64,000 nucleotides of DNA from a virus (taxonomy: Duplodnaviria; Caudoviricetes): the IMG/VR virus record IMGVR_UViG_3300001598_001791, positions 14,432 through 78,431 of that record, one strand, 5' to 3'. The notes under the pieces were generated by a model. The model saw only the letters and a list, made by a program, of their open reading frames with translations, did no database searches and had not been told where the DNA came from. How positions within the stretch are numbered: position 1 is the first letter of the stretch; each line of letters opens with the position of its first letter. The translations under genes and the position numbers were made by a program. Below, piece after piece: positions 3,535 through 43,192 of this stretch.

Positions 3535-4449
3535 ATGAATACAGAGTTATTTAGTAATTTATCAGATCAAGAAAAAGAATATGTACTTAAAATTTTAGAT
3601 GGTATTTCAAAAAATGATAACTCAGAATTAACTAAACTGTTATATGAAGATTATAGAGAAATACCTGTAGACATAAATACTTTTTTACATGATCCTTATT
3701 ATTTAGGAAGAGGTTTGATTGATGGTGAGGGGAGATTTACTTTATTTCCTTATTGAGAGGAATTATTAAAGAAAATATACCCAGACCCACTGAAACCTGC
3801 TATATGTAATACATTAGCTCTTACAGGAGCTATTGGTATTGGTAAATCAACTGAAGCAGTAATCATAGGTATTTATGAATTATATAGAATGATGTGTTTA
3901 AGAGACCCATCAGTTTATTATGGTATCATGAGTACTGATACAATTTCATTTGCAGTTATTAATATTACTTTAGAGGCATCTAAGGGTGTTGCTTGAGATA
4001 AATTTCAAAATCTGATTCAATCTTCAGGATGGTTTATGAATCATGGAAAAATGGCCGGTATAAATAAACCTGAATGAGTTCCTGATACTCAATATAAAAT
4101 TGATTTAATTTGTGGATCTCAGCCAAGACATTTTATTGGTAAAGCATTATATTGGTGTTTAGATGGTGATACAGTTATAGCTACAACAGATGGCAATAAG
4201 AAGTTAAGTGAACTAACTAATAAAATAATACAAGTGTTTACTATTAACGAAAAAGGTGAAGTTGTTGTAAGTGAAGAGTGCACAGTAAAACCTACAGCTG
4301 TAGAAGATATAGAATATCAAATAGAACTAGATGATGGTTCAGTAATAAAATGTACACCTACACATAAATTTATGCTAAAAGATGGTTCATATAAGGAAGC
4401 ACAATTTTTAACTGAAGAAGATGAATTATATGATGTGGAGGTTTCTTAA
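3535..4449 (+). CDS. terL: Terminase large subunit, N-terminal half fused to split-intein N fragment
   Basis: Code-4 ORF with 3 TGA; Walker A GAIGIGKS; extein ends ALYW, then intein CLDGDTVIAT; stop TAA 4447-4449. Confidence 0.88.
4156..4446 (+). other. Split intein N fragment (97 aa)
   Basis: Block A CLDGDTVIATTDGNKKLSEL; block B IKCTPTHKF; ends at a stop with no C-terminal HN. Confidence 0.9.
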
Positions 4450-5136
4450 ATGAAAGTTATTAAAGAACAAAAGCATTTTGGCTATATTTATAAACTTACA
4501 ATGATTCCCACAGGTAAAATATACATAGGTAAAAGAGAAAAAGATAAAATTGATGTAGGTTATTATGGGTCAGGCAGAGATTGAAAGATTGATCTTAAAA
4601 AATATGGTAAAGAAAATGTTAAAGTTGAAATACTTGATTGAGCAGATTCAAGAGATGAATTAAGAGAAAAAGAAGTTTATTGAATTAAGGAGTATAATTC
4701 TCAAAATAAAGAAATTGGTTACAATGTTCATAAAGGTGGTGCTGGTGGAAATTCATTAGGTGATACTGAAGCTTGAGCAGAATTGCATAGAGGTGAGAAA
4801 AATGGTAGATATCATATGCCTGTCAGTCAAGAGACAAGAGATAAAATTGGTGTTGCAAACTCAGGTAAAATAAGATCACAAGAAACAAAAGACAAAATTT
4901 CAGCTTCAACAAAAGGTGTTCCAAAACCAAATGGATTTGGTGATAAAATAAGTGCTGCAAGAAAAGGTGTTCCAAACACATGAGCATGAAAATCAGTTCA
5001 ATGTATAGAAACAGGAAAGATATATAAAACAGTTCATGATGCATCAATTGATACAGGTGCAACAAATATCGCAAGATCTTGCAAATTAGGTGTGACATCA
5101 GGTGGTTATCATTGGAGATATGTAAATGAAAATTAA
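4450..5136 (+). CDS. GIY-YIG homing endonuclease with NUMOD3-like repeats and C-terminal HTH (228 aa, code 4)
   Basis: GYIYKLTMIPTGKIYIG; YYGSG; IGYN; SQETRDKI/SQETKDKIS repeats; VQCIETG...GGYHWRY; 6 in-frame TGA; coupled to both terminase halves (TAAATG and an 11-nt overlap). Confidence 0.9.
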
Positions 5137-5251: not shown

Positions 5252-6640
5252 TGCTTTATGGATGAAGTGAGTTTTCAACCAAATCAAGACATTAATCGTC
5301 AGAAGGAGAAGGCTACAGAATTAGTATCTTCTGCAACTGCACGTATGCAATCACGTTTCATGAGAAATGATGTTAATCCTACAATTCTTGTAATGGCATC
5401 ATCAAAAAGAACTGAACAATCATTCTTAGAAACATGGATTGAAAACAAAAAGAAAAATGATAGTAAAACTACTATTGTTATAGATGAACCTCAATGGATT
5501 ATTAGAGCAGATAAACAGTCTGAAAGAACATTTAAAGTAGCAGTTGGTAATAAATTTCTTGTATCAGAAGTACTACCCCTAGACTTAACAGAAGATGAAA
5601 TTGGCTATTATAGAGAAAAGGGGTATAAAATTATCGATGTTCCAATAGGATACTATGAAACATTTATAGATAATATTGATATTGCTCTTACTGATGTTGC
5701 CGGTATTTCAACTACTAGCATCAGTGCCTATATTTCTGGGGCAAGGCTATCACAAACAAAAACTGAGAAAATTGAGAATCCTTTTGTTAAAGATATTATT
5801 GAAGTCGGTGATGGTAAAGATGACTTACAACAATATTCCGATTTCTTTAATTTAGATAAAGTAGACCCTAAGATGAAATCAAAACCCTTATTTATACATC
5901 TTGATATGTCTCTTACTGAAGATAAGACTGGACTGTGTGGTGTGTGAATAAAAGGTAAAAAACCACCACAAGATGGTGTTCCAGAGAGCCGTGAATTATA
6001 TTATCAACTGTCATTTGTTGTGTCCATAAAGGCACCAAAAGGGCATCAGGTTTCATTTGAGAAGACAAGAAATTTTATTTATTGGCTAAAAAAACAAGGT
6101 TTCAACATAAAGGGGATAACCTCAGATACTTATGCTAGGTCAGGTATAGAACAGGATCTAATTTCAAAAGGATACAATTATGGGATACTGTCAGTTGATA
6201 GGACTAAAGATCGTATCTGCGAACCATATGAATACCTTAAAAACACTATATATGAGCAAAGAATACTATTACCTAGATATGGAGTTAATTTACTGACTGA
6301 AGAATTGGTTGGCCTGAAGCGAGATAATAATTCAGGAAAAATAGACCATGACCCGTCTGGAATAAATAGTAAAGATAGTTCTGACGCCTTGTGTGGAGCT
6401 TTATGGACTGCATCCCAACATGCTGAAGAGTTTGCATATGACTTCGGTGAAAATGCCCAAGCTTTATTAGATTTTAATAATGATCTTGGAATAACTGAAT
6501 ATAATGAAGAATTTGAAGAATCTATAAAATTAGCTAAAAAGAAATCTTTATATACACAGAATGAAGATTCTAATTATCTTGATTTTGGGTATGGTATCCC
6601 GATGGAATTACCCTTTGAAGATGGAATAATGCTATTTTAG
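5126..6640 (+). CDS. terL: Split-intein C fragment fused to terminase large subunit C-terminal half (Walker B plus nuclease)
   Basis: MKIKSIRR...YVCSHN|CFMDEV (Walker B); TGA 5945-5947 joins track ORFs; nuclease motifs HLDMS and DSSDALCG. Confidence 0.88.
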
Positions 6641-9162: not shown

Positions 9163-11421
9163 ATGTTAAAAAAGTTAGATGAAAATATGTCTCTGAGATT
9201 TAGAAATCTAGACCCTAAATATAAAAAAGAAAAAAATGTTTTAGGTAGATTCTACGGTGAGGTTGCTACTTTTGGTGGTCAAACTAGAAACGGGAGACTC
9301 TATTCTGAAAAGTTATGGGAAAAACTATTTGAATCTGATCTTATTAAAGAGAGATTTGCTAATGGTGGAATTTTTGGTGAATTGTGTCATCCTGACAGAG
9401 AAGAAGTTGATTTTGAAAAAGTTGCAATTGTAATGCCAGAACCACCAGTTAAAGATAAAGACGGATCACTTATCGGATATGTAGATATTTTAGATACTCC
9501 ATGTGGCCGTATTGCTTATCAGTTAGCAAAATATGGATATAAGTTTGGTATTAGTTCAAGAGGTACTGGTGACTTAGTTGATGGCCCTAATGGCGAAGAA
9601 GTTGATCCTGATACATATTCATTAACCGCCTTTGACCTTGTAGAAATGCCAGGTGTATATGGTGCGAGAATGTCTTTTGCCGAATCATTAGATACTAAGA
9701 AATATAATAAAACATTAAAACAAAGATTATCTGAAGAATTAGAAAATTCAGAAGGAAGAGATAAAGAAATTATGGAAGAGTCTTTAAAAGAATTAAATAT
9801 CATCTTAAATGAAAATACTAATGAAGACTTCAGCCCTTATGGTTATTCTAAAGCTATTAAAGCTATTTCTGATGGTATTGAAAATGATACAGATTTAGAT
9901 GGTTTACAAAAATACTTACAAAATATTGTTGGATTCTGTAAGTCTATTGCTGATGATTATGATCTGGCTATAGAAGGTATCAGCGAAGAACTTGTAGAGA
10001 AACAATGCCAAGAATCAATTGGAGATGAAATTAAATATATTACAAAAGAAGAAGCTGATAAAGTAATTTCTGAAAGAAATCCAAAAGGTTTGTATATTAT
10101 TAATGAACCAGAAAATAATAAAACAGTTGCTATTGATAATTCTACTGGTGATGCTTGGACTGAAGAATTTGATTCTGAAGAGGAAGCTATTAGATGGTTA
10201 AATGGTGAATTTGAAATGGCTGATAGAGTTAATGAAAAATTCTATTTATCACAAGAACCAGAAAAAGTTGAAAAAGCTAAAGAAGCTTTACAAGCAAATG
10301 TTGATTGTAAAGAGTTAGTTTCTGAATTATTAAGAGTTGCTGATAATGATACTATTGCTAAATTATGTAGACAATTTGGTGTTGAATCAAAAGAATTTGG
10401 TTTTAATATCTTAACTAAAGATGAAGTTAAACAAAAATATGGCACAGAAGATATTTCTGAGTTAGTAGATGAATCATTAGAAAATGGAAAAACTGATTCA
10501 AGAGAAGCTGATGTTTTAGATAAGATATTTACATATTTAAGAGACGAATACACGGATGAAGAATTCGTTAAATTAGCTAAACAAAAATTTGGTATGACAG
10601 ATGAAGAATTAGCTAATTTCTGTGGTTTAAATGAATCTATCAGCGAAAGCTGTGGAGATATAGAAGTTGTTAAAGAAAATGAAGAAGCTGACTGTGTCAG
10701 AGATGAATTATTAGTTAACGAACTTCAACAAACTTTATTGAAAAATAAAGAGTTAGAAAAAGATAATTTGGAACTTCAAGAAAAATTATCGGTTTGCAGT
10801 GCAAAAGAAATTAGTTTAGAAGAAGAGCTAAAGAAGTATAAAACTTCTACAGCTTCATTAAGTGAAACTGCTAAAAAGGTTAAAGATCTGAAAGAAGAAA
10901 ATAGCCGTTTAACAGAAGAACTTAGACAAAATGAAAAATTACTTATTTCTGACAAAAGAAGATTCGAAAGATTAGGAGAACAAAGAAATAGCTATTCAAA
11001 GAAACTTGAAAAATCTATTGATGAGGTCAACAGTCTTAAGGATCAAGTAGTATCTCTTAAAGAGAATTTAGAGAAATCCTCTAAGAGAACTGAGGACTAT
11101 GAATTATCTATTAAGAAATACCAAAAAGCTTTAAAAGAATCAAAAGATTTATATATTAGAGCTAAGGCTGACTCATACAACCTATCAGTTGATGAAGTTA
11201 AGTCAAATTTGAGTGAATCATTCAAATTAAAAGAAGTTGATTCAATTTGTGAAGATCTATATAATCAAAAGAAGAATTTAAATAAACTACCATTCAGAAT
11301 CACTGAAGATGTTAAGATAAATGCTAAATCATCTAAAAATGAATATCTTGGTAGAGACACTTTCTATGATGATGATAATATTGATTCTTTACTTAAGATG
11401 GCCAACTTATTTGAAAAATAG
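9163..11421 (+). CDS. Prohead protease (T4 gp21-like) with long acidic/coiled-coil scaffold-like C-terminus
   Basis: RNGRLYSEKLW, FGELCHP, ILDTPCG, GISSRGTG, FDLVEMPG motifs; directly upstream of the capsid gene. Confidence 0.8.
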   Translation: MLKKLDENMSLRFRNLDPKYKKEKNVLGRFYGEVATFGGQTRNGRLYSEKLWEKLFESDLIKERFANGGIFGELCHPDREEVDFEKVAIVMPEPPVKDKDGSLIGYVDILDTPCGRIAYQLAKYGYKFGISSRGTGDLVDGPNGEEVDPDTYSLTAFDLVEMPGVYGARMSFAESLDTKKYNKTLKQRLSEELENSEGRDKEIMEESLKELNIILNENTNEDFSPYGYSKAIKAISDGIENDTDLDGLQKYLQNIVGFCKSIADDYDLAIEGISEELVEKQCQESIGDEIKYITKEEADKVISERNPKGLYIINEPENNKTVAIDNSTGDAWTEEFDSEEEAIRWLNGEFEMADRVNEKFYLSQEPEKVEKAKEALQANVDCKELVSELLRVADNDTIAKLCRQFGVESKEFGFNILTKDEVKQKYGTEDISELVDESLENGKTDSREADVLDKIFTYLRDEYTDEEFVKLAKQKFGMTDEELANFCGLNESISESCGDIEVVKENEEADCVRDELLVNELQQTLLKNKELEKDNLELQEKLSVCSAKEISLEEELKKYKTSTASLSETAKKVKDLKEENSRLTEELRQNEKLLISDKRRFERLGEQRNSYSKKLEKSIDEVNSLKDQVVSLKENLEKSSKRTEDYELSIKKYQKALKESKDLYIRAKADSYNLSVDEVKSNLSESFKLKEVDSICEDLYNQKKNLNKLPFRITEDVKINAKSSKNEYLGRDTFYDDDNIDSLLKMANLFEK

Positions 11422-11455: not shown

Positions 11456-14400
11456 ATGGCAAAAAACTTATTAGAAGACTACAAAGGTAGACTTTCTGTT
11501 AGATTTTAAGCAGCGTAGTGAAGTAATTTATTATGATGTTTCTTATTGTACCTAAATACAATACTTTAATCTACTGTCTCTAATAAGAGAAACAAACCTG
11601 GTGAATTCATGGAAAATCTAAAACTTAACGGGACCTCCCAACCCGGTTTTAGACAATCATGAGCCAAGCCCATTCGGGAAGGTGCAACGACTATCGAAAT
11701 GGTAGTTTAGGAGAAAAACCTAAATAAGAACAAAGTAGAGTACATCTAATTAGGTGGAAGTACCAGGGTCCTTATAAAGGATAAAACAACATAAGGATAT
11801 GATATAGTCTGATCTCCGTGGTGACATGGAGTTAACACAAATGTTCTGAAAAATTCTATGGCGACCGTAATGAAGGCGCTAAGATGGGAAACGCTAAAAA
11901 ACTTTTAACTGCTCAATGTTTAGACAATGTAGCTAAATATTTAAATGAGGCATTCACAATGACTGCAGGAACACAAAGAGGCGATTTAGGCGCTTTCAAA
12001 GTTTTCTGTATGGACATTACTACATTAACAATGCCAAACCTTATTGTTAATGACTTATTTATGGTTCAACCAATGAGTTCATTCCAAGGTTATTAAAAAG
12101 TTATAGTAACCTAGCTGCTATAATAAAAAGAAGGCAGCTACAATAAACCTCATAAATTCATGGAAACTCCTTACCTTTCAGGACAATCATGAGCCAAGCT
12201 TTCAATTTCTCAGTTGAAAGAAGGTGCAACGACTATCGAAATGATGGCTAGTAATAGCTAGAACAAAGTAGAGTACAATTCAAATGAATTGGAAAGATGA
12301 GGCTGCCAGAAATGGTAGATAATATAGTCTAAACTATATGGTAACATATAGAAAATATTTTGAGAAATTATTAATAAATGGCTACTGAGAAATAAAAAGC
12401 TTAAAATAATTTCAATGATTTATTTGTAATACAATTGTTAACTTACATGGAATATGCTTTAGCACCAGCTAAGGGTGGTGTTGCTGAAGGTACTGTTGTT
12501 CAAAATCCATTCCAATGGGCACCAATGACAGAAGCTAGAATGCAATACACTGGCGAAGCTGTTGTTGAAAAGATTGATGCTACTGGTGGTATTACCTTCG
12601 CTTGGGGACCAGTTGTTTATGGTAAAGCTGAAGACATCAGAGTTGAAGTAAACGGCGCTTACGTTCCAGTTCCAGCTGACAGACTAGTTAAAGATGCTAA
12701 TGGTAAAGTTATTGGTATCGCTGCTGGTTATATGGCTGAAGGTACAAGAGTTGCTTATAGATATGACAACCAATTAATCCCACAAGAAAAACTTCCTGGC
12801 ATCAAAGGCCAAATGAAGGGTATCGCATTAGTTGCTAAAGCAAGAAGAATTGGTATTGAATATTCACAATTCGCGGCTTAACTCAAGATACAAATCTTGA
12901 AAAGGTCCCTTACACAGTAATGTGTATTGAATAACCTATTTAATTGCTGGGAAACCTTTATAGCTAACTAAACTACAACGCAATTTGAAAAGATAATCGT
13001 GAAAGTTTTAAAATTAGTTAGATTAGGCAATCAGCAGCGAAGTTCCTTTAAAATGGAAAACGTTCAACGACTATCACCGGCGGGTGAGTAGATATTATGT
13101 AATATCAAAATAATAGGTATTTTTAAATCAAAAAAATAAATTATGGAAAAGAAAAAGAGAATTCCTTGAAACAAGGGTCTTACAAAAGAAACAGATCTAA
13201 GGGTTGCTAAGGGAGCTGAAAATACTAAAAACACAGTATTATCTAGATACGGTGTTAGTAATATATTTCAGTCAAAAGAAGTACTTGATAAACTTTCTGC
13301 AGATAGACATTCAGGTGAACTTGCAAGAAGAGCAATGGACACAAAGAAGTTAAGATATGGCGATCCGAATTATAATAATATTGAAAAGAATCATCAGACT
13401 AAATTAGATAGATATGGTGATCCAAACTATAATAATCAAGATAAAAACTATGAAACAAGAAAAATAAACGGCACATTTAATACATCTAAACCAGAAGAAG
13501 AATTAAAACAAGAACTAGTAAATAAATACGGTGAGGAAGACGTAGAAGTTGAATATAGAGATCCTAGATACCATAATAAAGAAGGGTATAAATATAAATG
13601 TGATTTCTATGTTAAATCTGAGGATTTATTTATTGAACTTAATTACTGGCAAGGACACGGACCACATCCCTTTGATGAAAATAATGAAGAAGATTTGAAA
13701 TTATTGGTTAAGTGAGAAGATAAGGCTAATTCAGGATTACCTCAATACAAAAATTATATTTATGTATGAACTGTTGATGATCCTAATAAATTAAAATGCG
13801 CAAAGGAAAATAATCTTAATTATCTGATGATTTATAGGAATGGTTTAAAAATAAAGATATAGTCTCCTCTCTTACGAAAGTAAGAGGCAATAATTATTGC
13901 ATTATAGAGTAACGATCTATAATAAAGAAAAGGTTTCAAGCTAAGCAAGATTACGGCATGGACTTCGAAGCTACTATCGCTCAACAAGCCCAAGCTGAAT
14001 TAGAGTATGAAATTGACTCTGAAGCGGTATTCATGATCAAGAATGCTGCTGATGCATCAGCTCCAGTTGTTACTTGGGTTGATGAAGAATTGGATTAAGA
14101 AAAAAAAGTTTACATTTTCTTACAATTATTGTTACATTTATTATAAAGATAATGGAAATGATATAAGAAGATGTACTACATATTTTACATATTTATTTAA
14201 TAATAAAGAACATACTTATACTCCTGATTTTATTATAGGAGATGAATATGCTGATGTTAAAGGTACACATTTTATTAAAGATAACAGAATGATTAACCCG
14301 TATGATCGATCTTTAGATGATCAATATGAAGCAAAACATCAATGTATAATTAAAAATAATGTAAGACTTATTTTAGAAGAAGAAATAAATAATTGTAAAT

Positions 14401-17400
14401 TATTTGTAGACCAAGAATATGGTTGTAATTATATAAACCAATTTGAGGTGACTAAAGGTCCCTTAATATAGAAATATATTTAGAAAACGATGTGAATTTC
14501 TGGGACATCTTATATACTTGCATACATATATAAGACAATCAGAAGCCAAGCAAATAGAAATATTTGAAGGTTCAACGACTATCGAAAAGTTAGTTTAAGA
14601 GAAATACTGAAATGAGAACTTAGTAGAGTACACTTTAAGTAAAGTGGAAGCGCATCGAAACTTACAGAGGTTCAAACAATGTAAGTTTATGATATAGTCT
14701 GATCTTATAGGTAACTATAAGAAATTAGATGGAAACGATCTAATTGTAACATAAATGACAATCAGCTATTCAATGAAGGCTAAACCTATTTTGGTCTTGG
14801 CGTAAGTAATTACGTAAAAATATAAACCGCATTAACTCAGGGGAACTCCCACAGGGAAAATCCTGATCCGAGCCTCTACTGTAAGAGGAAGGTGCAACGA
14901 CTATCGAAAAGGTCATTAATAAGAAATATATTAATGAGAACTTAGTAGAGTACATCTCAAAAGAGATGGAAGTGTGCGGCAACCTAGAGAGGATAAAACA
15001 ATCTAGGCTGAAGATATAGTCTGAACTCTATAGCAATATAGAGAGAATTAAATTTAGTTTAAATATGAACAATATAGAAGAAAAACAAAAAAATCACGCT
15101 GGAGGTACTAAAGGTTTAAAGTACTACAATGAGTGTAATTACAACTGAACTCATGGAAATACTGAACTCATGGAAATCATGCATATGATTAAAATAATGA
15201 AGACGATCTTGAGAAGGTTGTTGAATGAGAAGATAAAGCCAATGAAGGAAAAAATTATTATAAGAATGCAATCTATACATGAACAATTTTGGATGTTCGT
15301 AAACAAAAGACTGCTAAAGATAATAATTTAAACTATATTGTTATATATAAATAATTGTTTAATTCGTAACATAATTGGAAGGCTTTGCTAGAGCTATCGA
15401 AAGAGCTAAAGCTCATGTTTATAAAGCAACTGGCAGATTTATGCCTAACTGGATTAAAAATCTTGAATTTTGTTGCTAAATTTATTGTATAATATAATAA
15501 ATAAGGCAATTTGGCATGAATGAACAAATAATAAAATTTTACAAAACACATACTGGTGCAAAAACTAGAAAACAATTTAGTTAATATATGGTAAAAATTA
15601 TTTAAAGTCATTCAAAATTTAAAGATATGTCCCTTATTAAAGAAATTTAATATAGAAAACCACGAGAATTCATGGAAACGCCTATTCACATTGGAGAGTG
15701 ATTAGGTCAATCATGAGCCAAGCCCATTCGGGAAGGTGCAACGACTATCGAAATGATATGCATATACTTAATATGCAGAGTAACAGAGTAGAGTAAGACT
15801 TAAGAAATTCTGAAGTACGTGGGATCTAGAAATAAAGTAATCTAGATTATGATATAGTCTGAACTTATAAGTAATTATAAGAAAATAAACGGATTCGGTT
15901 TATTTGTAACACAATTGGTTAGTTTCTCCAGATATGATGACTATCCTTCCATTCGTTCCTGGTTTCGTTCATGCGAACAATGCTATTGCTAACGGACCAT
16001 ATGTTGCTGGAAATGTTGCTGGAATGAAAGTTATCGTATCACCAGCTTTAGGTAACAAAGTTTGTTACTTAGGTGTTTTGGGTGCAGATGGCAAGACTGC
16101 TGTTGGTGTATATGCTCCATTAAAAAATTATGCTTTCGCATAATGATTACAGTGGCCTTAAACAGAGATGTTTAAGTGAAAACAAATTTAATTGCTGGAA
16201 AGTCCTTAGAGCTCTTTTGGCTACAACGAAAGAAGTAATTCTAATCGTGAAAGCTTAAAAACAAAAGAGATTGGATAATCAGCAGCTAAGTTACTTATTT
16301 ATGAAAACATATTTATTTAGGTATATTGGTAGGACAGTGGGTTGCAAACCATTTTCTATTACTCCTAATAATAGAATTACTACCTATATATAAATTTAAT
16401 TTTAGAGGATTATATTTTGTATGGATATGTTTATTTAACTGAAAATTTAATAAGTAAAAAGTTCAACGACTAAGGGGTAGCACCCTGTAATAATCAAATG
16501 ATTATGAAAGAGTTTGCATCTTATCCTAAATAAGATGATAATATAGTCTCTTCTCTATAGAAATATAGAGCTACAAATTGTAGTAGTTAAAGTAATGAAT
16601 TAACTAAAAGATAAAAGATATGCCAATCGTCCCAACTCAATTATTAGGCTTTGCTGATGGCACTATGAGCCAAGGTTTGACAATCGCGACATGGCAGTTC
16701 GCGTAAGACCGTTTACTTAGCAATAAGTAAAATAAATCACATATTTAATTGCTGGAAAATCGTAAAGCTCACAAGCCTGAATGGTTACGAAAGTAGAAAC
16801 AAGTTGTGAGATATCTATATGGTGTAAACCTAAGTAGATGTAAATCGATAATCAGCTTCCAAGCTTCTGTTTAGAAGAAGGATCAACGACTATCCCCTAG
16901 TGGGAGTAGAGAAGAAGTCTTCTCGAAAAGGTATGCATCTTAAAAAGATGATGATATAGTCTATACTTTATTCGAAAGGTAAAGGAGAAATTATTTTGGG
17001 AAAAAGAACAAATTATATTAACCCTGATACAAAAGAAGTTATTTGATGTATTAGAGGTAATCAACCAGAAAACTGAGTTGAAATAAAACATTTTAAAAAG
17101 GTAGATGAGTTAAAGAATACTATTTCTAAAGAAGAATTATTTATTTATTATATTATAGAAAATAATAATTTTATAACTACTGCTAAATATTTCAATATAA
17201 ATCCTGCAAATGTATTACATGATTTACTAAAATATTACGGTATACATAAAGATAGTGTTTCTTCTAGTAAAAATAATAAATATAAAAGATCAAAAGAAGA
17301 ATCCATTTTAGTTGGACAGAAATCTTCTTTAACACAAAAAGAAAAATGGAAAAATAAAAGCATTGAGGAAAAAGAAGAATATAAGGAAAAACAAAAAATA

Positions 17401-18130
17401 GCTCATTCAACTGATACTTTCAGAAAAAAAATAAGTGATATAAATAGAGAATATAGAAAAGAACTAAAAGATACTGATCCTGAATTAGATTTTGAATTAA
17501 ATAGGCGTAGGTCTATTTCATGTAAAAAAACTTGGTCTAATAAAGATTTAATAGACAAAAGGAATGAAACAGCTAAAAAGAACAGATTAGAAAGAAAAAA
17601 TCAAATTTGTAGAACTAAGGCTGAACAATCAGTCTATAATGTACTGATTAATTTATTTCCAGATCTTATTTATGATAAAATAATTGATGAAAGATATCCT
17701 TATCATATTGATTTTTATATTCCAAGTGAAGATCTATTTATAGAACTAAACGCACATCCTTCTCACGGTAAACATCCTTTTACTGGTGATCTGAATGAAT
17801 GCTATAATATCACTGGTAATTGGCTAGATACTTATATTAGACGAGACGTAGAAAAAAGAAATTGTGCTATTTCAAATAATCTTAATTATTTAGTTATTTA
17901 TCCTCAATCATCTTTAAGAGAAAACATCTCATTTAATCCCGAAAAATATAAAGACTTAATAAAAATTATTTATAATTCCCAGAATAAATCTCACTAATGA
18001 TTAACGACCATTAGTAAATATATTAGTTAGCACACTTTATGATATGCGAATCTTAAATGAAAAATTATTAGCAAAGATCAACGTTGTTGAAGGCGATGAA
18101 GCTGCATTGGTAAAAGTTTTAGAAGCTTAA
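11456..18130 (+). CDS. Major capsid protein (T4 gp23-like, 454 aa), spliced from 9 exons: 11456-11499, 11844-12093, 12438-12878, 13934-14095, 14758-14781, 15378-15454, 15918-16120, 16618-16677, 18027-18130
   Basis: Exons total 1365 nt and join in frame: LSV|SEKFY, FQGY|LTYME, QFAA|FQAKQDYGMD, EELD|TISYSMKA|EGFARAIE, PNWM|LVSPD, YAPY|MPIVPTQ, QGF|STLYDM. Every junction follows the group I rule (5' exon ends in U, intron ends in G). gp23-like motifs VQPMS, KARRIGIEYS, YAPYMP. Confidence 0.88.
11500..11843 (+). ncRNA. Group I intron 1 of capsid gene (344 nt, no ORF)
   Basis: Core elements GAATTCATGGAAA, AATCATGAGCCAAG, GCAACGACTA, GATATAGTCT; IGS GCAG pairs with exon CUGU (U-G at splice site); ends ACAAATG. 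Confidence 0.88.
12094..12437 (+). ncRNA. Group I intron 2 of capsid gene (344 nt, no ORF)
   Basis: Same core elements; IGS GTAACCT pairs with exon AGGTTAT; ends ACAATTG. Confidence 0.9.
12879..13933 (+). ncRNA. Group I intron 3 of capsid gene, with endonuclease ORF in the P8 region
   Basis: TTAATTGCTGGGAAA, AATCAGCAGCGAAG, TCAACGACTA, AAGATATAGTCT; CTTGAAA near the 5' end pairs with 3' exon TTTCAAG (P10). Confidence 0.88.
13143..13862 (+). CDS. Intron-encoded endonuclease, Vsr/DUF559-like PD-(D/E)XK type (239 aa, code 4)
   Basis: IPWNKGLTKETD (W = TGA), RYGDPNYNN repeats, CDFYVKSEDLFIELNYWQGHG; 3 TGA; stop overlaps the intron S element. Confidence 0.75.
14096..14757 (+). ncRNA. Group I intron 4 of capsid gene
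   Basis: GTGAATTTCTGGGAC, AATCAGAAGCCAAG, TTCAACGACTA, GATATAGTCT; ends ACATAAATG; nuclease remnant near the 5' end. Confidence 0.85.
14148..14471 (+). pseudogene. Truncated PD-(D/E)XK (TnsA-like) endonuclease remnant in intron 4
   Basis: HTYTPDFIIGDEYADVKG motif; no in-frame start with RBS found; track ORF N-terminus (14043) is out-of-frame exon sequence. Confidence 0.55.
14782..15377 (+). ncRNA. Group I intron 5 of capsid gene
   Basis: IGS GGTCTT pairs with exon AAGGCT; core GCAACGACTA and AAGATATAGTCT; ends ACATAATTG. Confidence 0.85.
15065..15354 (+). pseudogene. Decayed paralogue of the intron-3 endonuclease inside intron 5
   Basis: NEDDLEKVVEWEDKANEGKNYYKNAIYTWTILDVRKQKTAKDNNLNYIVIY aligns by eye with the intron-3 ORF C-terminus; broken by a 17-nt tandem duplication (15144-15177) and TAA 15190-15192. 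Confidence 0.75.
15455..15917 (+). ncRNA. Group I intron 6 of capsid gene
   Basis: GAATTCATGGAAA, AATCATGAGCCAAG, GCAACGACTA, GATATAGTCT; ends ACACAATTG; splits the Met codon AT|G. Confidence 0.87.
16121..16617 (+). ncRNA. Group I intron 7 of capsid gene
   Basis: TTAATTGCTGGAAA, AATCAGCAGCTAAG, TTCAACGACTA, AATATAGTCT; IGS GTGG pairs with exon CCAT; splits Tyr T|AT. Confidence 0.87.
16417..16461 (+). pseudogene. 15-codon stub of a GIY-YIG endonuclease in intron 7
   Basis: RBS GAGGA then TTG-YGYVYLTENLISKK, resembling the GIY motif, running into the intron core. Confidence 0.45.
16678..18026 (+). ncRNA. Group I intron 8 of capsid gene, with endonuclease ORF in the P9 region
   Basis: TTAATTGCTGGAAA, AATCAGCTTCCAAG, TCAACGACTA, GATATAGTCT; likely IGS GACC pairs with exon GGTT; ends ATATTAG. 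Confidence 0.82.
16996..17997 (+). CDS. Intron-encoded Vsr/DUF559-like endonuclease (333 aa, code 4; absent from ORF track)
   Basis: RBS AAGGAG, TTG start, 2 TGA, open to TAA 17995-17997; YPYHIDFYIPSEDLFIELNAHPSHG and NNLNYLVIY, homologous to the intron-3 ORF. Confidence 0.8.
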
Positions 18131-18142
18131 TCCCAAAAATTA

Positions 18143-18170
18143 AAAGAAGCTGAAAAGCTTCTTTTTTTTT
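18143..18170 (+). terminator. Intrinsic terminator after capsid gene
   Basis: AGAAGCT-gaaa-AGCTTCT followed by a T run. Confidence 0.8.
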
Positions 18171-18172
18171 AG

Positions 18173-18204
18173 TTTACTTTTTGATATATTAATTGTAGTA
18201 TAAT
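18173..18204 (+). promoter_or_regulatory. Sigma70/sigmaA-type promoter (AGTTTAC-N17-TAnnnT family)
   Basis: TTTACT 18173 with TAGTAT 17 nt later. Family members at 18309, 18411, 47161, 52326, 56349, 59135 and 62982 all have 17-nt spacers. Confidence 0.7.
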
Positions 18205-18207
18205 TAT

Positions 18208-18306
18208 CATTGTATATTATTATTGTAATCACCCACTGTGGTTATTCTAGTGTTTTAAACACAATCCTCTTTATTCAGAAGACTTAAATAAGTCTTCTTT
18301 TTTTTT
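18208..18306 (+). ncRNA. Candidate small RNA 1
   Basis: Bounded by a promoter and terminator (AGAAGACTT/AAGTCTTCT + T run); no ORF; hairpin GTAATCA/TGGTTAT; TCCTCTTTA tract. Confidence 0.45.
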
Positions 18307-18343
18307 AGTTTACAAACATATTTATTTGTTGTATAATAATAAT

Positions 18344-18408
18344 GTAATCAAATTAATGGTTATATTTTCCCCTTTATGACAGTAGAGATCTCTGATCTCT
18401 ACTTTTCT
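18344..18408 (+). ncRNA. Candidate small RNA 2 (paralogue of RNA 1)
   Basis: Own promoter (TTTACA 18309, TATAAT 18332) and terminator (AGTAGAGATC/GATCTCTACT); same GTAATCA/TGGTTAT hairpin; TCCCCTTTA tract. Confidence 0.45.
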
Positions 18409-33050: not shown

Positions 33051-33628
33051 TGATAGTTACTAAAGCTTATATAACAGAGATGCCAAAAGATGGCGATAAT
33101 ATCTTTAAGGTTAATGTACCCTTGATGTCAGATAACACTTTAAATGATGCTATATTTGATGCGTTATTGTGTACTGACCCTATTAGTTATAGTGGTTATT
33201 CTGTTGGTGACCCAGTCTTTGTGACATTTGAAGATGAAAAATATAATATTGCTATAATTTTAGGTAAATTATTTGTTTCTATACCAACAGAGTCTAAGTC
33301 ATATACTATTACAAATGAATTGAGAGTAACTGGACAAGCAAACTTACCACCAAGTACAAAATTTGGAGAGTATACCGTTCAAGACTTCACTAATTTATAT
33401 AATGCTACACTTAATTCAGGTGGAGGATCGCTAGATAAAGAAGGATTAGAAAAGTACTTAAAAGAATATGTTAAGTGAGAAAGCACTGAAGAAATAATAG
33501 AAGAAGAACCAGTAGAGGTTTTTGCGAATAAAATTTTATGTATGTCAGGTGAAACCTACTCTCTGATAACACCAGTAGATAATACATTATACTTCTTAAC
33601 AAGTGTACCTACAGAGGAAACTCAATAA
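33050..33628 (+). CDS. Probable baseplate spike / OB-fold protein (192 aa, code 4)
   Basis: FKVNVP...YSVGDPVFVTFED...IILGKL; extended via TGA 33476-33478. Confidence 0.45.
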
Positions 33629-34674
33629 TGCCAATTAAGTTAAAAATAGAAGATATTTTAAGAATTAGATTAAAAGATAAACAAATTTGGAGAGTATATA
33701 ACAAAGATCAACTTATCTGAGGATATTATCTAGTTAATTATAACTTTGCTGAGGGAATTAACGACCCAGATAATCCTAAAGATTATGTTTGAGGTATTAA
33801 AGATATTACTTTATTACCAGCTGAATGAGAAGAAGCTGATGACTTTATGGGTTGATATGATAGTATAACTCTTGAACGAGTTATTGATAAAATAAGCAAA
33901 GATGATCACCTTGATTTTAACTTATATGCAAAGTGAGTTAAACATAAGTTGCAATACAGAGGATGGTATACTTGGACAGAGCCATTTACTCCAACTTGGA
34001 CTATTAGAACAGCCAGGCCTACAGTAACCAGACCAGATGTGTTCCCTTATACAAATGATATTTATTGGGGGTGGAGTCCACATACTTGTGCCTGGTATTG
34101 TTATGGTAGAACTGCCGAAGCAGCAGTCAATAGTGGTATAAGTAGTGAATCCAATGCGTTTTTTGCACCAAATGGAAACCCACCATGGGATGGTAAGTCG
34201 GGTGGTCACTATGGAGATGCCAAAGACTGGATTAACAGTGTATATGCAGTAACAGACTCTACAGTTGGTGTTCAACCTGGAAATGTTGTTATTTGTACCT
34301 ATACTGGAGAAACATCTGGATATAAACCAGGTCACGTTTTATTTATTGAAAGAGTTGAGTCAACTAGAATAACTACAACTTGTACTGCATATGGTTTCCC
34401 CTATTACTGAGATCCTGGTGCCTTGAATATGGGTCAAAATTTATATAATATTCCAGGTGATAGTGGTTACTTTACTGTTATTGGTTATATAGATAATCCT
34501 CAAATGGGAGGCACTGTTATCAAAGAAGCTGAACAAACTGAATGGAGTGATAACCCAAACCCACCCAAGGGAAGTTGAAAAGAAGGTTACCCTGAAACAA
34601 GAGGACTTGAAAGTGTGTATGATTATGAAAGTGAATCATGGGGAGAATGGAGGGAGATAAATGAGATCAATTAA
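33628..34674 (+). CDS. Baseplate protein with B-type repeat and CHAP (Cys/His amidase) domain (348 aa, code 4)
   Basis: 7 TGA; TCAWYCYGR, GDAKDW, PGNVV, GHVLFIE (catalytic Cys and His present). Confidence 0.7.
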
Positions 34675-35032: not shown

Positions 35033-35068
35033 TCTATATATTATACAAATGAAAGGAAATTTGTAAAA

Positions 35069-38000
35069 ATGAAAGATCCTAATATCTCAGCAATGAGTTA
35101 TACCTCAAAAGACTTTGGTCAAATTTATAAAGAGGCGCTTGATCTGGCTAAAGAATTAACAAACAGATGAGATCCTTCACAATCAAATGAAAGTGACCCT
35201 GGAGTTGTTCTTTTAAAAGAAGGTGCTTTTTTAACAGACCACAATAACTATAATATTGATAAAAATGTTTTAGAAAACTTTTTACCTAGTGCTACACAAG
35301 ATAGATCTGTCCGTAATATTATGGAGATGAATGGCTATACACCAAGATATTATGTATCAGCTATGGGTAAAGTATCATTCAAATGGGAAAATCCAAATGC
35401 CACAAAAGGTGATTACTCAGGGACTAGCTTTACTATACCTAGATTTACCTTAGTAGTATCTGACGCTGATGGAACTGTTTCATATACTCAAGCTGATGAT
35501 CTAGCTATCTCGATAGATTATGAAAACCCATCTTCTGCCTCATTAGTATCATCATGTAACTTCATTGAAGGTACTTTACAAACATTAACGATAAATAACT
35601 CTGATACTGTTTTCTTGGAAAATATCGACGACAACAATAGAGTTTATTTACCTGAAACAATGGTTGCCCAAAATGGTGTTTATATCAGATACTCAAATGA
35701 TTCTGAGCATAAAGAATATGGATTCTGGGAAAGAAATAATTATTTATCTACACAACCAGCCGGTTCTAGATTATATAAAATTGATTATGACTCATTTAAA
35801 GGATTACCTTATATTGAATTCCCTTCAGATATTTCTAACATTATTTTAAGTGGGTTATTAGTTCAATACATTTCAACATCAGGTGAAGCCGGTAATGTTA
35901 GTGCTAACACTTTAGTTAATATTGTTACACCGACAGAATTTTATGATAGAGACGGATATTCTAGGTCAACTGAGTACTTAACTTTAAATAACGTTTCAGC
36001 AATTACTAATGGCAAAGACCCTGAAACAATTGAAGAGATGTACCAATCGTTTAAAAAAGTTGTTGGTACTTTCGATACTTTAGTTTCATGTAATGATTAT
36101 AAAAATAAAATTAATTTATTGGATGATGGTGTCAATTATCTTGTATCAAATAACTATGTTACGGATAGAAGAACTGATTACAATAAATCAGCTAATGTAG
36201 TTACTTTTGATAGTAAAGGTGTTTATCAGGCTAATTTAAGTATTAAACCATGTTCACTAAGACTTAAAGGATCAGCTGATGAGTGTACTTCCATAGGTGA
36301 TATGTACTATGATTCTGTCTCTAAAAAATTAAAAGTTAAAATTGGAGTCACTGAAGATAATTTTGAAAGTTGCGATACAATTAATTTAAATGACTTCTCT
36401 TTATTGACAGAGGCAATGACTCCATATGATTTAGTTGTTTACGCTTTAAAGAATTTTTCTCTTTCAGATTATAATAGATCATATCCTTATAGGGCTTTAC
36501 AAAATTCTTTTACTCCTATTTCATCTTCAGTTAGAAATGATTTAGAGAATTTAAATTATGGATATCTAAGTGATAGTAAATGTATTTGCCATACATTTAA
36601 CGATCCTAAATCAGGTGAAGTTTACTGTTTTAAAAATTATGTACCATTAAATGTTACTATTATACCATATAACAAAATTACTGCTGATGAAAAGTCTAAT
36701 ATTATAAATAATATTTATATTGCTTTGTCAGAAAACTTTAACCCTAGAAATATTGAATTCGGTGAAGATTTAGATATTACAGCTGCAAAAGAAGTTATTC
36801 TAAATAGTGATAGCAGAATTAAAGATTGTAATATTGATTATAAATATGAAACCTATGCTATGAACAGTATTTCTGGTAGTGATGGTATTTATGAAGAGAA
36901 AAAACTAAATGGTACTCTCACCGGATCTTCATCAGTATTACTACTTGATTTAGTTACTAAAAATATTTTAGCTGGTAGAGTCTGTTTATTTGAATTTGAT
37001 GAAGACTTTACTTATGACTATGAGCAATCTGATTGTAAATTTATCGATAATGCTACATCATTTAAAACAGCACTCCCATTACCACTTAAACAGTCAGCCG
37101 TAAAAAGTGTAACAACTGCGAAAACAACTACAACAACTTCAGTCATTGATGGTTCTTCTAGTGGTTATACAATTTACTATAATTTTAATGCACCTAACTT
37201 AGATTCACCTGAAAGTAGAGTAAATGTAACAAAGGGAACTTCATATACACTACAAACAGATGAAGATGGAGTATATGTTGACTCCTTTAGACTAGAAATT
37301 ATTCAAGGCACTGGCACTGAAAGTAAAGTTATTAGTGATGTTACCTATAAAGCTTCACTTGACACTACATATAGTTTCAGTTTAGATGATGCAAATATCA
37401 TTAACACTGCTGATGATACATTAACTTCGATAACTGGTAAATTAACTATTGTTACTATTAGGGTTGATGCATCAGATGATGAAGGAACAGAGAACCTTAA
37501 TTATACTTTAGATAAGAATGAATATATTCAAATCCTTTATCCAAATTACTACTCAACTGATACATATGGAATCTATGTTAATTATAGATATCAATCAACT
37601 GATCCAGACAGTATAATCAGAGCTAACACTGAACATACATTGAGATCTGATGAAAAACTAGTATTAGTTTATACAAATAATGGTGTTACTGTAACTGATG
37701 TACCTGTTACTGGTACTATCATTAGATCAAGTTTTGATATCAATCAAACTGATAAATTATCGGCAACAGGAACCAAAAAGAGTTGAACTGATTTAGATGG
37801 TACTTACCATGATAATGAAAAATTCATGTCATTGTCATCAAATCAAACTATTTCAAAACGTTCTCAATTTAGTACTATTCTAAATGGTACTAATATTAAC
37901 TGTTATTGGATGGTTAATAATTCAACAAATACTCTATTCTCAAATAAAGGACTGAGTGAAGAAAGAGTTTTAGGCAATAATGAATATTTCATTTATACCA

Positions 38001-39376
38001 ATTCAACTAAAGATGAGATGATGATTCTAGGTTCTGGGACTAAACTTTTGAAGTCTAGTAATGATAAAAATAATTGGATAATTGATAAAGATACTACTCA
38101 AACTATTGAGTCTATTACTACAAACGGAATTACATCTTCAATTCCGTGGTCAGTTATGGACTTCTCACAAGCACCATTTGAGATAGTTGAAATGAATTTT
38201 ATTACATTATCAGAAGGTGATTCTATTAAGATTAGCGGATGAGAAGGATTAAAATCAGGTGATAAGATTAATAACTCATGGGTATATTGTAATGGTACAA
38301 TAGCCTATACGTCAGGTGGAACTACTACAATTTTACCAAAAGTTTCAAATTTTTATAAAATTAGAAGTAGACTTGATTTAGTTTGTGGCCCAACAACTCC
38401 ACAAGAAATAATCTATCGAGGAACTGACGGAATAAACCAAGAAGTACATATTAACAGTACTGCCTTATCCGGGTATAAAATCCAGTCATCTATTCAATTA
38501 AATTTATTAGGTGATGAAAATATTGATGTTTCTGTATATACTCAAAATGGGATATCAATTAACATCTTAGGATATAAGACAGAAGAAAAAATGACAGCAG
38601 TATTAACTCCTGATGGATTAGACCCTATAAATCTAACTCCAGGTAGATCTGTTAATATTGATTATAATAAGTCATATCCAAATAGAAAACAAACTTATAC
38701 ATACACATACCCGTTCTATTATTTCAATTCAGCTGAACATGTTCGTGAATATCTTGTACCTGTTTATATTGAAGGTGATGAAATTAACCTCAACGCTAAG
38801 ATGCAGAAAAAGTCTGGAGAAGATAGTTGGGAAGATATTTATTTCATTGATTATAATGTTGATACTTCTTCAGTGCTTTCAAAAACTCTCACTGGAAATA
38901 ACATGTATTTCTTATCACCGTCTACATCAGGAGGAACAACCCCTCTAGTTTATACAGGTGAATTAAGATTAGTTCTAACATGGGAATTCCCGGAATCATT
39001 TACTGGAATGAAAAACTTACAAACTTTAATAGTTGATGATTTAACAGTTATTAAGGGTATTAATAATAAATTATCTATTGATATTACTAATATAAATAAA
39101 ACCAATATACTTTCAAGAATAAATGGTATTATTAGTGGATCTGATAAACCAAGTACAAAGTTCTATTACTCATATAGACCAGATTCATCAATGGAAATTA
39201 ATTTAGATAAATATTTGAGTTATACTATTAACAACAATCAGATAGTTTATGAAATGAAGGCCTTTGATAATCCATTAATTATGTGAGATACAAATAACGT
39301 TGCCAATAAAATGACTATTGCTCAATTAGATTTGGCCAATTCTAGAATTGATACAGATAGTAACATGGTGGTTTAA
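35069..39376 (+). CDS. Large baseplate wedge protein (gp6/J-like, 1435 aa, code 4)
   Basis: YTSKDF...W(TGA)DP...SDPG; GEAGN; GKDPETIEEM; four track ORFs joined in frame by 4 TGA. Confidence 0.75.
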
Positions 39377-40577: not shown

Positions 40578-41375
40578 ATGAGTTATATATCATCTTCAAA
40601 CGTTAGTGTGTTTCCTTCAACATATAGAAACCAATACCAGACAAGCAAGCTAACAAGTGAAAATAATTTTGTAAATATAATTAATGCCATTATCAATAGA
40701 CCTAACGGTAGCTATGTAGTATCACATGAAAATAATGTATTACGATTAGTTATTCATGGTTATTATTTCGAAGTAACCAATTGGACAAAATCTCCAAATT
40801 TAGTTGCATCAATTAAAGTTGAAAATAACGGTTTCAGTTTGGTTAGACATGATAATTTATCAATTGATAATTTAGATCAAAATTCAATTTTTTATGGCTT
40901 AGATATTTCAGAGGGTAATCCTGTTAATGGCTCTGATGAAAATTATACAACTTATTCATTACAAATAACAGACTCATCTAATAATATTATTAACCAAGAA
41001 AGACTTACTACAGATGTTATCGAATGAGGTAAGTCAGGAAAAACGTTATCTACAAGATTAGATGAGCTTCAAGAGCAATTAGTTGTGGGAGATAATTCAG
41101 GTCTTACTTTATCATCTGACAAGAAAACGCTTGCTCTCAATCTTAAATATAAAAATAGCCTAGATAACTTAGGTAACAAAGGTGGTTCTGGTAATAAATT
41201 AATCTACTTCGATAACGATGGCGTTGTCAAAGATTCAACTTCTACAATAGGAACAGATCATCAAATTGTTTATGTGAATAATGGAACATTAACAGCAGGA
41301 GCTAAAATAACTATTAGTAATTCTAATCCATCTGGTGGAAATAACGGTGACATCTGGCTTAAATATGGAGGCTAG
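40578..41375 (+). CDS. Tail fibre-associated protein (265 aa, code 4)
   Basis: Track ORFs 40578 and 41085 joined by TGA; ends PSGGNNGDIWLKY. Confidence 0.55.
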
Positions 41376-41380
41376 ATAGT

Positions 41381-43192
41381 ATGTCAATAAATGTTGTTAT
41401 ACATACATACGATACAGAATTATCAAGAAGTGGTAATGTTACTGGGTATCATTATGACTCTAGTGGAACTTCAATTAAAACAATCAATATTCCATCAGGA
41501 ACTATTAAAAAAACATATCAATGTAATTATGGAGATGTTTTATATTCATTAAAATATTCTCATGTGGGTTATACTATAGACCATTGATATGGAGAAATAT
41601 CAACAGGATCTTCAGCTAGATCCACAGTATATTTACCAACAGAAGGTATAGTAAATATTGATATAACCTCTGATATGAAGGCTCTAGAGCTATGGCCAGA
41701 AGTTAATGCTAATACCTATACAGTAACTGCATCTGCTAGTGGAAGCGGTGGTTCTGTAAAACCTACTTCAACAACAGTAGAGTACAAAAAAACTGCTACA
41801 TTTACAGCTAATGTAGATTCTGGATATGTAGTTGATTGTTGGTATTTTAATAATGCTCCTAAAACTTCGGCCGGAACTAGCTCAACGTATACTACTCCAG
41901 AAATAACAGAAAATAGTACTGTTAAAGTTGTATTTGCGAAAACCCAATTGAAGTATTATTTTTATGATAACGGCCAAGAAGTAAAATCAGGTGATGGATA
42001 CCTGGGTGAAACGATTAACTTTTCTAAGTATAAAATATCTAAAGATAATACTGTAACACAGAGAACTGGGTATAAGATGTCTTTTTATGATTATCAAGGT
42101 GGAAGTAAAATTGGTGAGTCTGACATATCTGGTGGACAAATTATAACATCATATACTTTGTCAGGTTGAAATAACGGGTTTGGTAATTTTTTTGAGGCAG
42201 ATGGAATTGAAACTATAAAACCACTATCAGGAAATCGAGAATTCTATGCACAATGAACAGAGTCTTCTACATCTACTAATAACAAATTACAATCAATACT
42301 AGATTCACCTTCTAGATTAGGGTATACTTTTAATTTCTGGAAGTGAAATGGTGAACAGCTATCAAAAGGACAAGAGATTACCGAAGATGGTAATCAAAAT
42401 GCTTATGGTGATTGGACTCCACGTATATATAATGTATCATTTGCACTTGGATCTTCTGATACAACAATTGGAAAGTTACCAGAACCAACTTGAGGAACTG
42501 GATCAAAACCGTCTACTCAAACAAAAACATTCGGTACTGCTATAGGGAAACCTGAAGTTATACCTGAAAGATTTGGTTATACTTTTGTTGGTTGGCATAT
42601 TGATAAAAATGTATCACCAACAGATTCTAGTATAATTACTGGTACTACTATTGATGATAGATTCTTTACCTCAAATTCAACTACTACTGTAACATTATAT
42701 ACTATTTGGAAACCAAAAGAATTAACAGGTAGAAAAAATTATTACTATAACGGTGTCTCTTATACTGAAGACTTCTCCTACACTATTGAAAGTGTTAATT
42801 CTAGAGGTGAAAGAATTTATGATGTAGGATTGCCGGATAAGGGATCTACCGACGGTGAGTGGGTTTTTGCTGGATGAGTAAAAGATAAACCTTCTAGTTG
42901 AACAGATAAAAAGGGAAGATATAGAAATCTTATCGAAGTAGGAAGTGAGCCTAAATTACCTTATGAAATTAAGGTAATCACTATCACTGACTGGGACAGT
43001 AAAGACACAGAACAATTTTATGGCATCTGGTCTTCAAGTGGTAAATATGTTAAAATAAATGGTGAATGAGTTCAAGTTCCGGTAGCATATGTAAACGTTA
43101 ATGGTGAATGGAAATTAATGTATGATTCAGATGGTTGTTCATTCTATGTTAATGTTAATGGAAACTGAAAACCTGAAGCAGGTGGAAATTAA
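41381..43192 (+). CDS. Tail fibre / receptor-binding protein with several B-type repeats (603 aa, code 4)
   Basis: 9 TGA; PSRLGYTFNFW, PERFGYTFVGW, TLYTIW; C-terminal VxxNGEW repeats. Confidence 0.65.

Follow-up and report, generated by a model that had tools for sequence, protein, structure and literature searches.

How many introns can the major capsid gene of a phage hold and still yield capsid protein? The question is raised by a plus-strand locus at 11456-18130 of a 64-kb window, by which we mean the whole stretch of DNA analysed, positions 14,432 to 78,431 of IMG/VR record IMGVR_UViG_3300001598_001791 (Caudoviricetes). The source record is 78,431 bases long and estimated to be ~47% complete, and G+C is ~30% across the whole window. 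The locus holds a gp23-type major capsid gene in nine exons, separated by eight group I introns. We consider it very probable that this is the capsid gene of an uncultured, ~30% G+C, T4-like phage, and that its eight self-splicing introns result from repeated selfish invasion and are tolerated.

A capsid gene in nine exons

With genetic code 11, open reading frames (ORFs) in the locus are no longer than 158 codons, except for two, both intronic. Searching with the largest coding piece found one long relative, protein P0001, which is intronless, 420 amino acids long, encoded on a 209-kb contig and assigned to Pfam PF07068 (Gp23). By sequence it matches T4 gp23 structures (E ~5e-6) and annotated capsid genes in 271 phage records, the best of these being a Listeria phage and a Bacillus phage at 30-33% identity. 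The exons were derived independently, by tblastn of P0001 against the region (eight colinear pieces) and by reading the junction sequences. Joined, they give 454 codons plus TAA with no internal stop, and the product is 44% identical to P0001 over 436 residues (E 6e-118) in an alignment that is gap-free at all eight junctions. The totals proposed by a first-pass annotation of this DNA (1365 nt of exon spread over 6675 nt, encoding a 454-amino-acid gp23-like protein) were thus reproduced, as were its 24-nt exon 5 and its 60-nt exon 8.

All exons lie on the plus strand. Exon 1 (11456-11499, 44 nt, MAKNLLEDYKGRLSV) ends in phase 2 and corresponds to P0001 residues 1-15, with a junction check at its end. 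Exon 2 (11844-12093, 250 nt, residues 16-98) is by itself recognisable as phrog_138, major head protein (E 3e-7), and matches PF07068 at E 0.009, below the cut-off of that family. Exon 3 (12438-12878, 441 nt) encodes the variable insertion-domain part of the protein and is 42% identical to P0001 residues 99-223. Alone, this largest exon has no match in Pfam, PHROGs or the phage collection, and a search of IMG/VR with its peptide found no close relative. Exon 4 (13934-14095, 162 nt) covers residues 224-270 and onward, and the 24-nt micro-exon 5 (14758-14781) encodes TISYSMKA. Exons 6 (15378-15454, 77 nt) and 7 (15918-16120, 203 nt) correspond to residues 286-310 and 312-378, exon 8 (16618-16677) is 79% identical to residues 380-398, and exon 9 (18027-18130, 104 nt, residues 400-413) ends in TAA. 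The introns, of 344-1349 nt, make up 79.6% of the locus and have a G+C content of 28.7%, versus 39.2% for the exons.

The junction rule noted at first pass holds at every site: U precedes the 5' splice site and G is the last intron base in eight of eight introns. Alone, this rule is a weak discriminator, because in such AT-rich DNA there are 3 to 20 alternative in-frame solutions per junction within 15 nt on either side. It is homology that picks the junction, the chosen solutions being those that align gap-free to P0001. A ribosome entering any of the eight introns would meet a TAA as its first stop after 0-9 codons.

One other site was considered for the start of intron 1, at 11504 or 11505, which pairs better with core-adjacent sequence. 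It was rejected because it has no G at a compatible 3' position, or else gives a product with two residues that relatives lack. Extensions of tblastn matches from exons into intron 3' ends were likewise rejected as mimicry. The intron end GA.TTATTTGTAACA.AATTG translates to NDLFV.QL, which resembles the genuine exon 2 sequence NDLFMVQP; a copy of this stretch in a related capsid-gene contig (L083) has an in-frame stop, and the stretch is therefore intron.

Intron cores, guides, nuclease genes and surroundings

The first-pass annotation had proposed a search with group I models. Using the Rfam covariance model RF00028 (gathering score 50 bits), we found a core in all eight introns, six of them reaching the gathering score. 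The search of the whole window placed five above it: introns 1 (78.4 bits), 2 (62.9), 4 (71.1), 5 (70.7) and 6 (67.6); these are the only above-threshold matches of that search, and all lie within the capsid gene. Intron 8 scores 56.8 bits when searched alone and is lost to speed filters in larger searches. A permissive search adds intron 7 at 30.4 bits and intron 3 as two halves of 39.3 and 28.3 bits, so that these two stay below the gathering score in a single match. The score of intron 3 is low because an ORF splits its core, and that of intron 7 because of a 136-nt insert. Each intron has a single copy of the 5' motif of P7, CAA[CA]GACTA, and there is no other copy in the 64 kb; the 3' motif, ATA[TG]AGTC, has nine copies, one in each intron and one elsewhere. 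Searches with the core motifs in the window, and with RF00028 in the window and the rest of the record, found no group I intron outside the capsid gene.

Introns 1, 2, 4, 5 and 6 form a family (A) with cores 60-78% identical. Of these, intron 1 (11500-11843, match at 11556-11831, 3' end TTAACACAAATG), intron 2 (12094-12437, 3' end GTAATACAATTG) and intron 6 (15455-15917, match at 15609-15881, 3' end GTAACACAATTG) are free of ORFs. Intron 4 (14096-14757, match at 14440-14721, 3' end GTAACATAAATG) has an ORF between the 5' splice site and the guide, and intron 5 (14782-15377, match at 14772-15043, 3' end GTAACATAATTG) a decayed nuclease-gene remnant after P9. A second family (B) consists of intron 3 (12879-13933, half-matches at 12933-13085 and 13801-13886), with its ORF in the P8 loop, and intron 7 (16121-16617), which is ORF-free, is matched over the full model length and has its insert in P6; the two are 72% identical over 142 nt. 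In intron 8 (16678-18026, match at 16695-16984) the core is at the 5' end and P9 is followed by a large ORF; this intron has short core stretches in common with intron 7. The 3' end GTAAYAYAAWTG is common to five of the introns and also stands directly before exons in introns of relatives.

To the five family A introns we aligned 13 from the capsid genes of relatives. The RNAalifold consensus of these 18 introns contains P3, P4-P5, P6, P7.1, P7.2, P8 and P9, and 50 of its 64 pairs show compensatory change, with both sides altered and pairing kept. We argue from these changes that the family A ribozymes have been kept working. In intron 3, P7.1, P7.2 and the 3' strand of P3 (at 13112, after P7) can be read from the sequence, and the P8 strands at 13119 and 13838 flank the ORF. 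P7.1 and P7.2, extra hairpins that lie between P7 and the 3' strand of P3, are the hallmark of IA introns; in family A they are indicated by covariation, and in introns 7 and 8 by inserts of 34-35 nt in the cmscan alignments. On these predicted helices, all eight introns are of IA type, with the architecture of classical phage introns.

Two observations concern intron 6 in particular. A 51-nt patch running from P5/P6 to P7 is 98% identical between introns 1 and 6 (11654-11704 and 15708-15758), the remainder being ~64% identical, which suggests gene conversion between these paralogous introns. The 174-nt 5' leader of intron 6, which separates its splice site from the guide, showed no sign of being a remnant of the intron 4 ORF (local score 27, shuffle mean 26.5).

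In every intron a guide G can be found whose exon-side pairing with the end of the intron's own exon runs to 4-7 contiguous pairs. The longest guide helices (P1), of 9 bp including the U.G, belong to introns 2 and 5, with guides 12-13 nt inside the intron: exon end GGUUAU and intron start UA pair with UAGUAACC, and AAGGCU and AAA with UUUGGUCUU, the latter helix using the last six bases of exon 5. Introns 3, 7 and 8 have a common layout of splice site, small hairpin and A-G-NNN, in which NNN varies with the exon end (GGCU/GGUC, CCAU/GUGG and GGUU/GACC, respectively; the guides of introns 7 and 8 are at 16152 and 16707). In introns 4 and 6, GUCC at 14458 and 15629 pairs with the exon end GGAU from 363 and about 175 nt away from the splice site, and cmscan places the guide G of the model on the G of GUCC in both. 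Intron 1 offers only a local 5-bp P1 candidate, CUGU with GCAG (G at 11510). Two guides also pair with foreign exon ends, through many wobble pairs: that of intron 5 (14793) makes nine contiguous pairs with the end of exon 8 versus six with its own, and that of intron 7 eight with the end of exon 2 versus four. Such cross-pairing may be chance or a source of mis-splicing.

The three intron ORFs likely encode homing nucleases of a poorly described Vsr/TnsA-like family, whose activity we infer. The putative homing endonuclease gene of intron 8 (16996-17997, plus strand) starts with TTG and encodes 333 amino acids, and database protein P0006 is identical to its translation only when two TGA codons are read as Trp. 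Its product has 139 homologues, several with DUF7487 or NUMOD3, and its AlphaFold2 model has a pLDDT of 91. In structural comparisons, the best matches of residues 202-333 are Vsr (Z 8.1, root-mean-square deviation (rmsd) 3.0, 99 residues aligned) and the catalytic domain of I-Bth0305I (PDB 3r3p; Z 6.1, rmsd 3.4, 84 aligned, 20% identity), and these residues also align with TnsA (Z 5.7, rmsd 2.5, 84 aligned); scores in this range can mean no more than a common arrangement. I-Bth0305I, an EDxHD-family homing endonuclease from a group I intron of a Bacillus phage, is also the first-ranked Foldseek match (prob 0.95, E only 0.12). The likeness would lie in a candidate Vsr-like nuclease fold of the C-terminal domain; the intron 8 protein has no sequence-family match. 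Its residues D239, E250, H257, D284 and K287 are invariant. A contiguous E-D-x-H-D motif was not found in it, and no motif mapping onto 3r3p was made.

The putative homing nuclease of intron 3 (13143-13862, plus strand; 239 amino acids if three in-frame TGA are read as Trp) resembles that of intron 8 in its C-terminal 85 residues, which are 41% identical in an alignment that crosses two TGA codons. A code-11 piece of this ORF has one weak PHROG match, to Holliday junction resolvase (E 0.003). The intron 4 ORF (14082-14471, plus strand; 129 amino acids) begins at an ATG 14 nt inside exon 4, in another frame, and is predicted to encode a stand-alone nuclease-like domain. Its Atlas structure model aligns with DUF7487-domain proteins (TM 0.87 over 124 residues), a TnsA-like N-terminal domain is among its feature matches, and Pfam endonuclease I is matched only at E 0.05. 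Intron 5 keeps a decayed copy of this domain at 15178-15362, where identity to the 3' end of the ORF in intron 3 is 67%. The need to read TGA as sense extends to many genes in the window. The frame at 35033-39376 is open for 1447 codons with 4 TGA, that at 41363-43192 has 9 and that at 33583-34674 has 7, and there is no in-frame TGA in the capsid exons, portal or protease genes. Part of the genome seems to use TGA as a sense codon.

The gene upstream of the capsid locus (9163-11421, plus strand) encodes a prohead protease (S77/gp21-like; PF03420 E 4e-9; phrog_207, head maturation protease, E 2e-32) that continues into a fused, scaffold-like tail, and this neighbour puts the locus at the place of the major capsid gene in a T4-like head module. 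A consensus scan found no plus-strand terminator-like site within 11456-18130, and a terminator-like hairpin with a T run (18142-18165, plus strand) 12 nt past the capsid stop codon. In the 300 nt past the gene (18142-18403) there are three strong hairpins of this kind, at 18142, 18277 and 18381, stacked with two near-consensus promoter-like sites at 18309 and 18411. No tRNA gene was found in the window.

Origin of the array and competing explanations

How would such a gene work, and how would it have arisen? The 6.7-kb locus would most likely be transcribed as one unit. Each intron would fold and excise itself through two guanosine-initiated transesterifications, its short guide paired with the 4-7 nt that end the exon before it, to leave a 1365-nt mRNA for the 454-amino-acid capsid protein; a ribosome in an unspliced intron would stop at the nearby TAA. 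The introns would derive from a pool common to the capsid genes of related phages, three of them keeping Vsr/TnsA-like nuclease genes, presumably for homing endonucleases, and one a remnant. Given the pool and the nuclease genes, the pile-up is best read as repeated invasion of conserved capsid sites by selfish mobile introns, which, we propose, the phage tolerates because they splice.

We compared intron occupancy in related capsid genes, as the first-pass annotation had suggested, using the best 80 IMG/VR loci and 25 metagenome loci. The gene is uninterrupted in most of these relatives; ~9 of the 80 and 5 of the 25 have from one to three group I introns in it, for the most part within its first 100 codons. 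The fragmentary contigs L081 and L083 carry a heavier load, and no relative in the compared sets reaches eight introns or, in the metagenome scan, exceeds 52% identity. The intron 2 site recurs in three relatives (L078, L073 and L094). The 3' splice site of intron 7 recurs in L081, whose intron is the best outside match of intron 7. In L081 (3978-5808) the capsid C-terminus is first present in full (3978-4583); only then comes the intron 7-like element, which has a GIY-YIG ORF, and behind it a second copy of at least the last 34 residues (5707-5808), so that the 3' exon is duplicated around the intron.

The eight insertion sites lie in stretches that are better conserved than random positions (0.754 versus 0.629, a level that 1.5% of random site sets attain), which is what homing elements would be expected to show. 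A recent burst of the five family A introns within the gene was considered and is unsupported by the tree, because introns of relatives are interleaved with them (intron 4 with one from L081, L081a, and intron 5 with one from L038, at 60-72% identity); the deep nodes of this tree are weak. The array therefore looks to have been assembled from an old pool that is shared with other phages. Different positions in the capsid gene are occupied by related introns, and the guide of each has been adjusted to the exon end that precedes it. Introns 4 and 6 both have the guide GUCCC and both follow UGGAU, and their 3' exons are unrelated. This pattern leads to the tentative idea, which we think unlikely, that endonuclease homing was not the sole route by which introns reached new sites, and that they also spread through reverse splicing into the very abundant capsid mRNA or through ectopic insertion directed by the guide. 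If true, this phage clade would be a natural system for testing intron transposition by short guide pairing.

Several points weigh against an array of eight working, selfishly acquired introns. The guide pairings, said at first pass to be visible for most introns, are extensive for introns 2 and 5; in the other six, P1 has only 4-5 contiguous pairs including the U.G, and guide positions were picked after scanning. For introns 1, 4 and 6 the guide position is uncertain, either local or 175-363 nt downstream. Intron 7, at 30 bits, is under the Rfam threshold. The intron ORFs, with TGA as Trp, have no significant Pfam or PHROG family and no curated homing-endonuclease match, and their fold scores are moderate. 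Exon 5 and the protein family have only an I/V-S motif in common, and its skipping stays in frame. The contig is a metagenome assembly, from which alone the co-occurrence of eight introns on one molecule is read.

Could the array be an adaptation rather than a burden? It might delay or gate capsid synthesis, or its nucleases might keep competitors out by cleaving the intron-less capsid alleles of relatives that infect the same cell. In favour of this, the eight introns are confined to the capsid gene, no other having been found in the window or the rest of the record, the three nuclease ORFs appear intact when TGA is read as Trp, and conserved insertion sites would suit a weapon against relatives. 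However, purely selfish homing would lead one to expect such sites just as much, intact ORFs are missing from five of the eight introns, and most relatives are intron-free in the capsid gene. We consider an adaptive array quite unlikely.

A second alternative concerns the micro-exon, which may be outside the main product if intron 4, exon 5 and intron 5 are removed together or alternatively, giving a 446-amino-acid protein or a mix of isoforms. The lengths of exons 3, 4, 5 and 8 are divisible by 3. Since, in addition, exon 5 is flanked by phase 0 junctions on both sides (junctions 4 and 5), a skip of its 24 nt stays in frame, so a minor shorter form would be possible. The family matches only two of the eight exon 5 residues. 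A 24-nt exon is skipped in engineered tandem introns (PMC10136302), and, in the account of Twort orf142 given there, so is a 23-nt exon between two IA2 introns. The 7-mer GAAGGCT both ends exon 5 (14775-14781) and opens exon 6 (15378-15384), so that in spliced mRNA the two copies would form a perfect tandem repeat, whose boundary is exactly the site of intron 5.

Yet both edges of exon 5 are those of an exon. The typical family 3' end of intron 4, GTAACATAAATG, directly precedes it, and the 9-bp P1 of intron 5, with its U.G, uses its last 6 nt. The segment, with its I/V-S motif, is gap-free in 45 of the 45 aligned family members shown, and skipping would delete eight residues from it. Against skipping, too, is the reading of a 7-nt micro-exon in L083 that restores conserved residues. 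In this 2.4-kb contig, which has at least four group I cores, the capsid-gene fragment at 1100-1935 has cores at 1118-1432 and 1604-1892 between two exons; under the U and G junction rule, ATACTAT (1469-1475) separates them and would restore RRIAV-YY-SQIAAFQ, identical to P0001. L083 thus appears to have a micro-exon of its own. We judge it very unlikely that exon 5 is left out of the main product. The exon skipping or splicing-based timing raised at first pass is possible on paper and, on present evidence, a speculation.

It is less likely still that the contig is a composite of strain variants, with genuine introns of which no single genome has all eight. Metagenome assembly, differences in intron occupancy among relatives and the 51-nt patch of 98% identity in introns 1 and 6, which could confuse an assembler, would allow it. 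But a read is longer than any of the exons of 24, 60 and 77 nt, which means that introns 4, 5 and 6, and likewise 7 and 8, must be joined within single reads or k-mers; the exon order is colinear with the protein; and outside the patch the paralogous introns are only 60-78% identical.

That the gene is dead, with at least one intron no longer splicing in a defective phage, is barely credible: intron 7 is under threshold, intron 3 matches in pieces and several P1 helices are short, but nine exons are free of frameshifts and stops and colinear with homologues, core motifs are intact in all eight introns, the missing helices of intron 3 are found around its ORF, and helices are maintained by compensatory changes.

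Other split genes and what the array means

Is a capsid gene with eight self-splicing introns a new kind of thing? The introns of T4 td, nrdB and sunY belong to subgroup IA2 and carry homing endonucleases, one intron per gene, in nucleotide-metabolism genes. Those described here are like them in their predicted IA ribozymes with P7.1 and P7.2, in the endonuclease ORFs (putative here) placed in peripheral loops and in the early stops past the 5' splice site. They differ in the nucleases, GIY-YIG or HNH in T4 and apparently Vsr-like here. Cluster J mycobacteriophages reportedly also have group I introns in structural genes. The expectation from the first pass, that phage introns come one to a few per gene and mostly in genes of DNA metabolism, is dated in its second part, since introns in structural and capsid genes have been published.

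The closest layout to that around exon 5 is known from phage Twort, whose orf142, as reported by Landthaler & Shub (1999; cited in PMC10136302 and PMC11878797), has three introns and a 23-nt exon between two IA2 introns that is sometimes skipped. As far as these citing accounts describe it, orf142 likewise combines several IA2-type introns in one phage gene, in a nearly identical arrangement; it has three introns versus eight here, and its splicing and skipping were shown by experiment, whereas splicing here is predicted from sequence. DNA polymerase and terminase genes of Bastillevirinae have up to three introns per gene (PMC11878797).

Structural genes, including the capsid gene, have group I introns in the Delta and Zeta groups of crAss-like phages (PMC7886860). 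In a Zeta genome (cMAG OLRF01000054) the capsid gene is in five fragments, with four interruptions (Yutin et al. 2021, PMC7886860). That case is similar in being the capsid gene of an uncultured, alternatively coded phage, split by endonuclease-carrying group I introns. It differs in having five fragments in a crAss-type podovirus, as opposed to nine exons in a gp23/T4-like lineage, and its introns were recognised by protein domains, while those here were recognised by RNA cores. Jumbo gut (Jug) phages have ~18.5 introns per genome, 37 of 76 confirmed as spliced by metatranscriptomes, and these are distributed among many genes, terL for example being in two to three fragments (PMC12880540). 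Group I introns in essential genes of uncultured phages are thus common to both; unlike in the Jug phages, eight are in one gene here.

Outside phages, the major capsid gene of Faustovirus E12 has 13 exons, the shortest of 13 bp, and 12 introns, as shown by RNA-seq (PMC6247863). It too is a viral capsid gene spread over many exons with group I introns and homing endonuclease ORFs. Unlike the phage gene, it belongs to a eukaryotic giant virus and encodes a double jelly-roll capsid protein, and five of its 12 introns were recognised as group I.

Eight introns exceed the load of every published phage gene that we found, these having three to four, and are twice the highest such count. The first-pass annotation called this exceptional, which is right as to degree and not as to kind: the capsid array is an extreme example of a known phenomenon in a gp23-type lineage, with no new mechanism. 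Capsid genes of such a kind are missed in viromes because gene callers see fragments and the largest exon matches nothing. The paralogous introns, 60-78% identical and with differing guides, could be used to study splice-site specificity and intron spread, as could the recurrent micro-exons (24 nt here and, as it appears, 7 nt in L083). That virion output would depend on eight splicing events, as was first proposed, follows from the gene structure. If all eight introns splice, each capsid protein needs eight ribozyme reactions on one bacterial-type mRNA, and the locus shows what load of selfish introns an essential, highly expressed gene may bear while still working.

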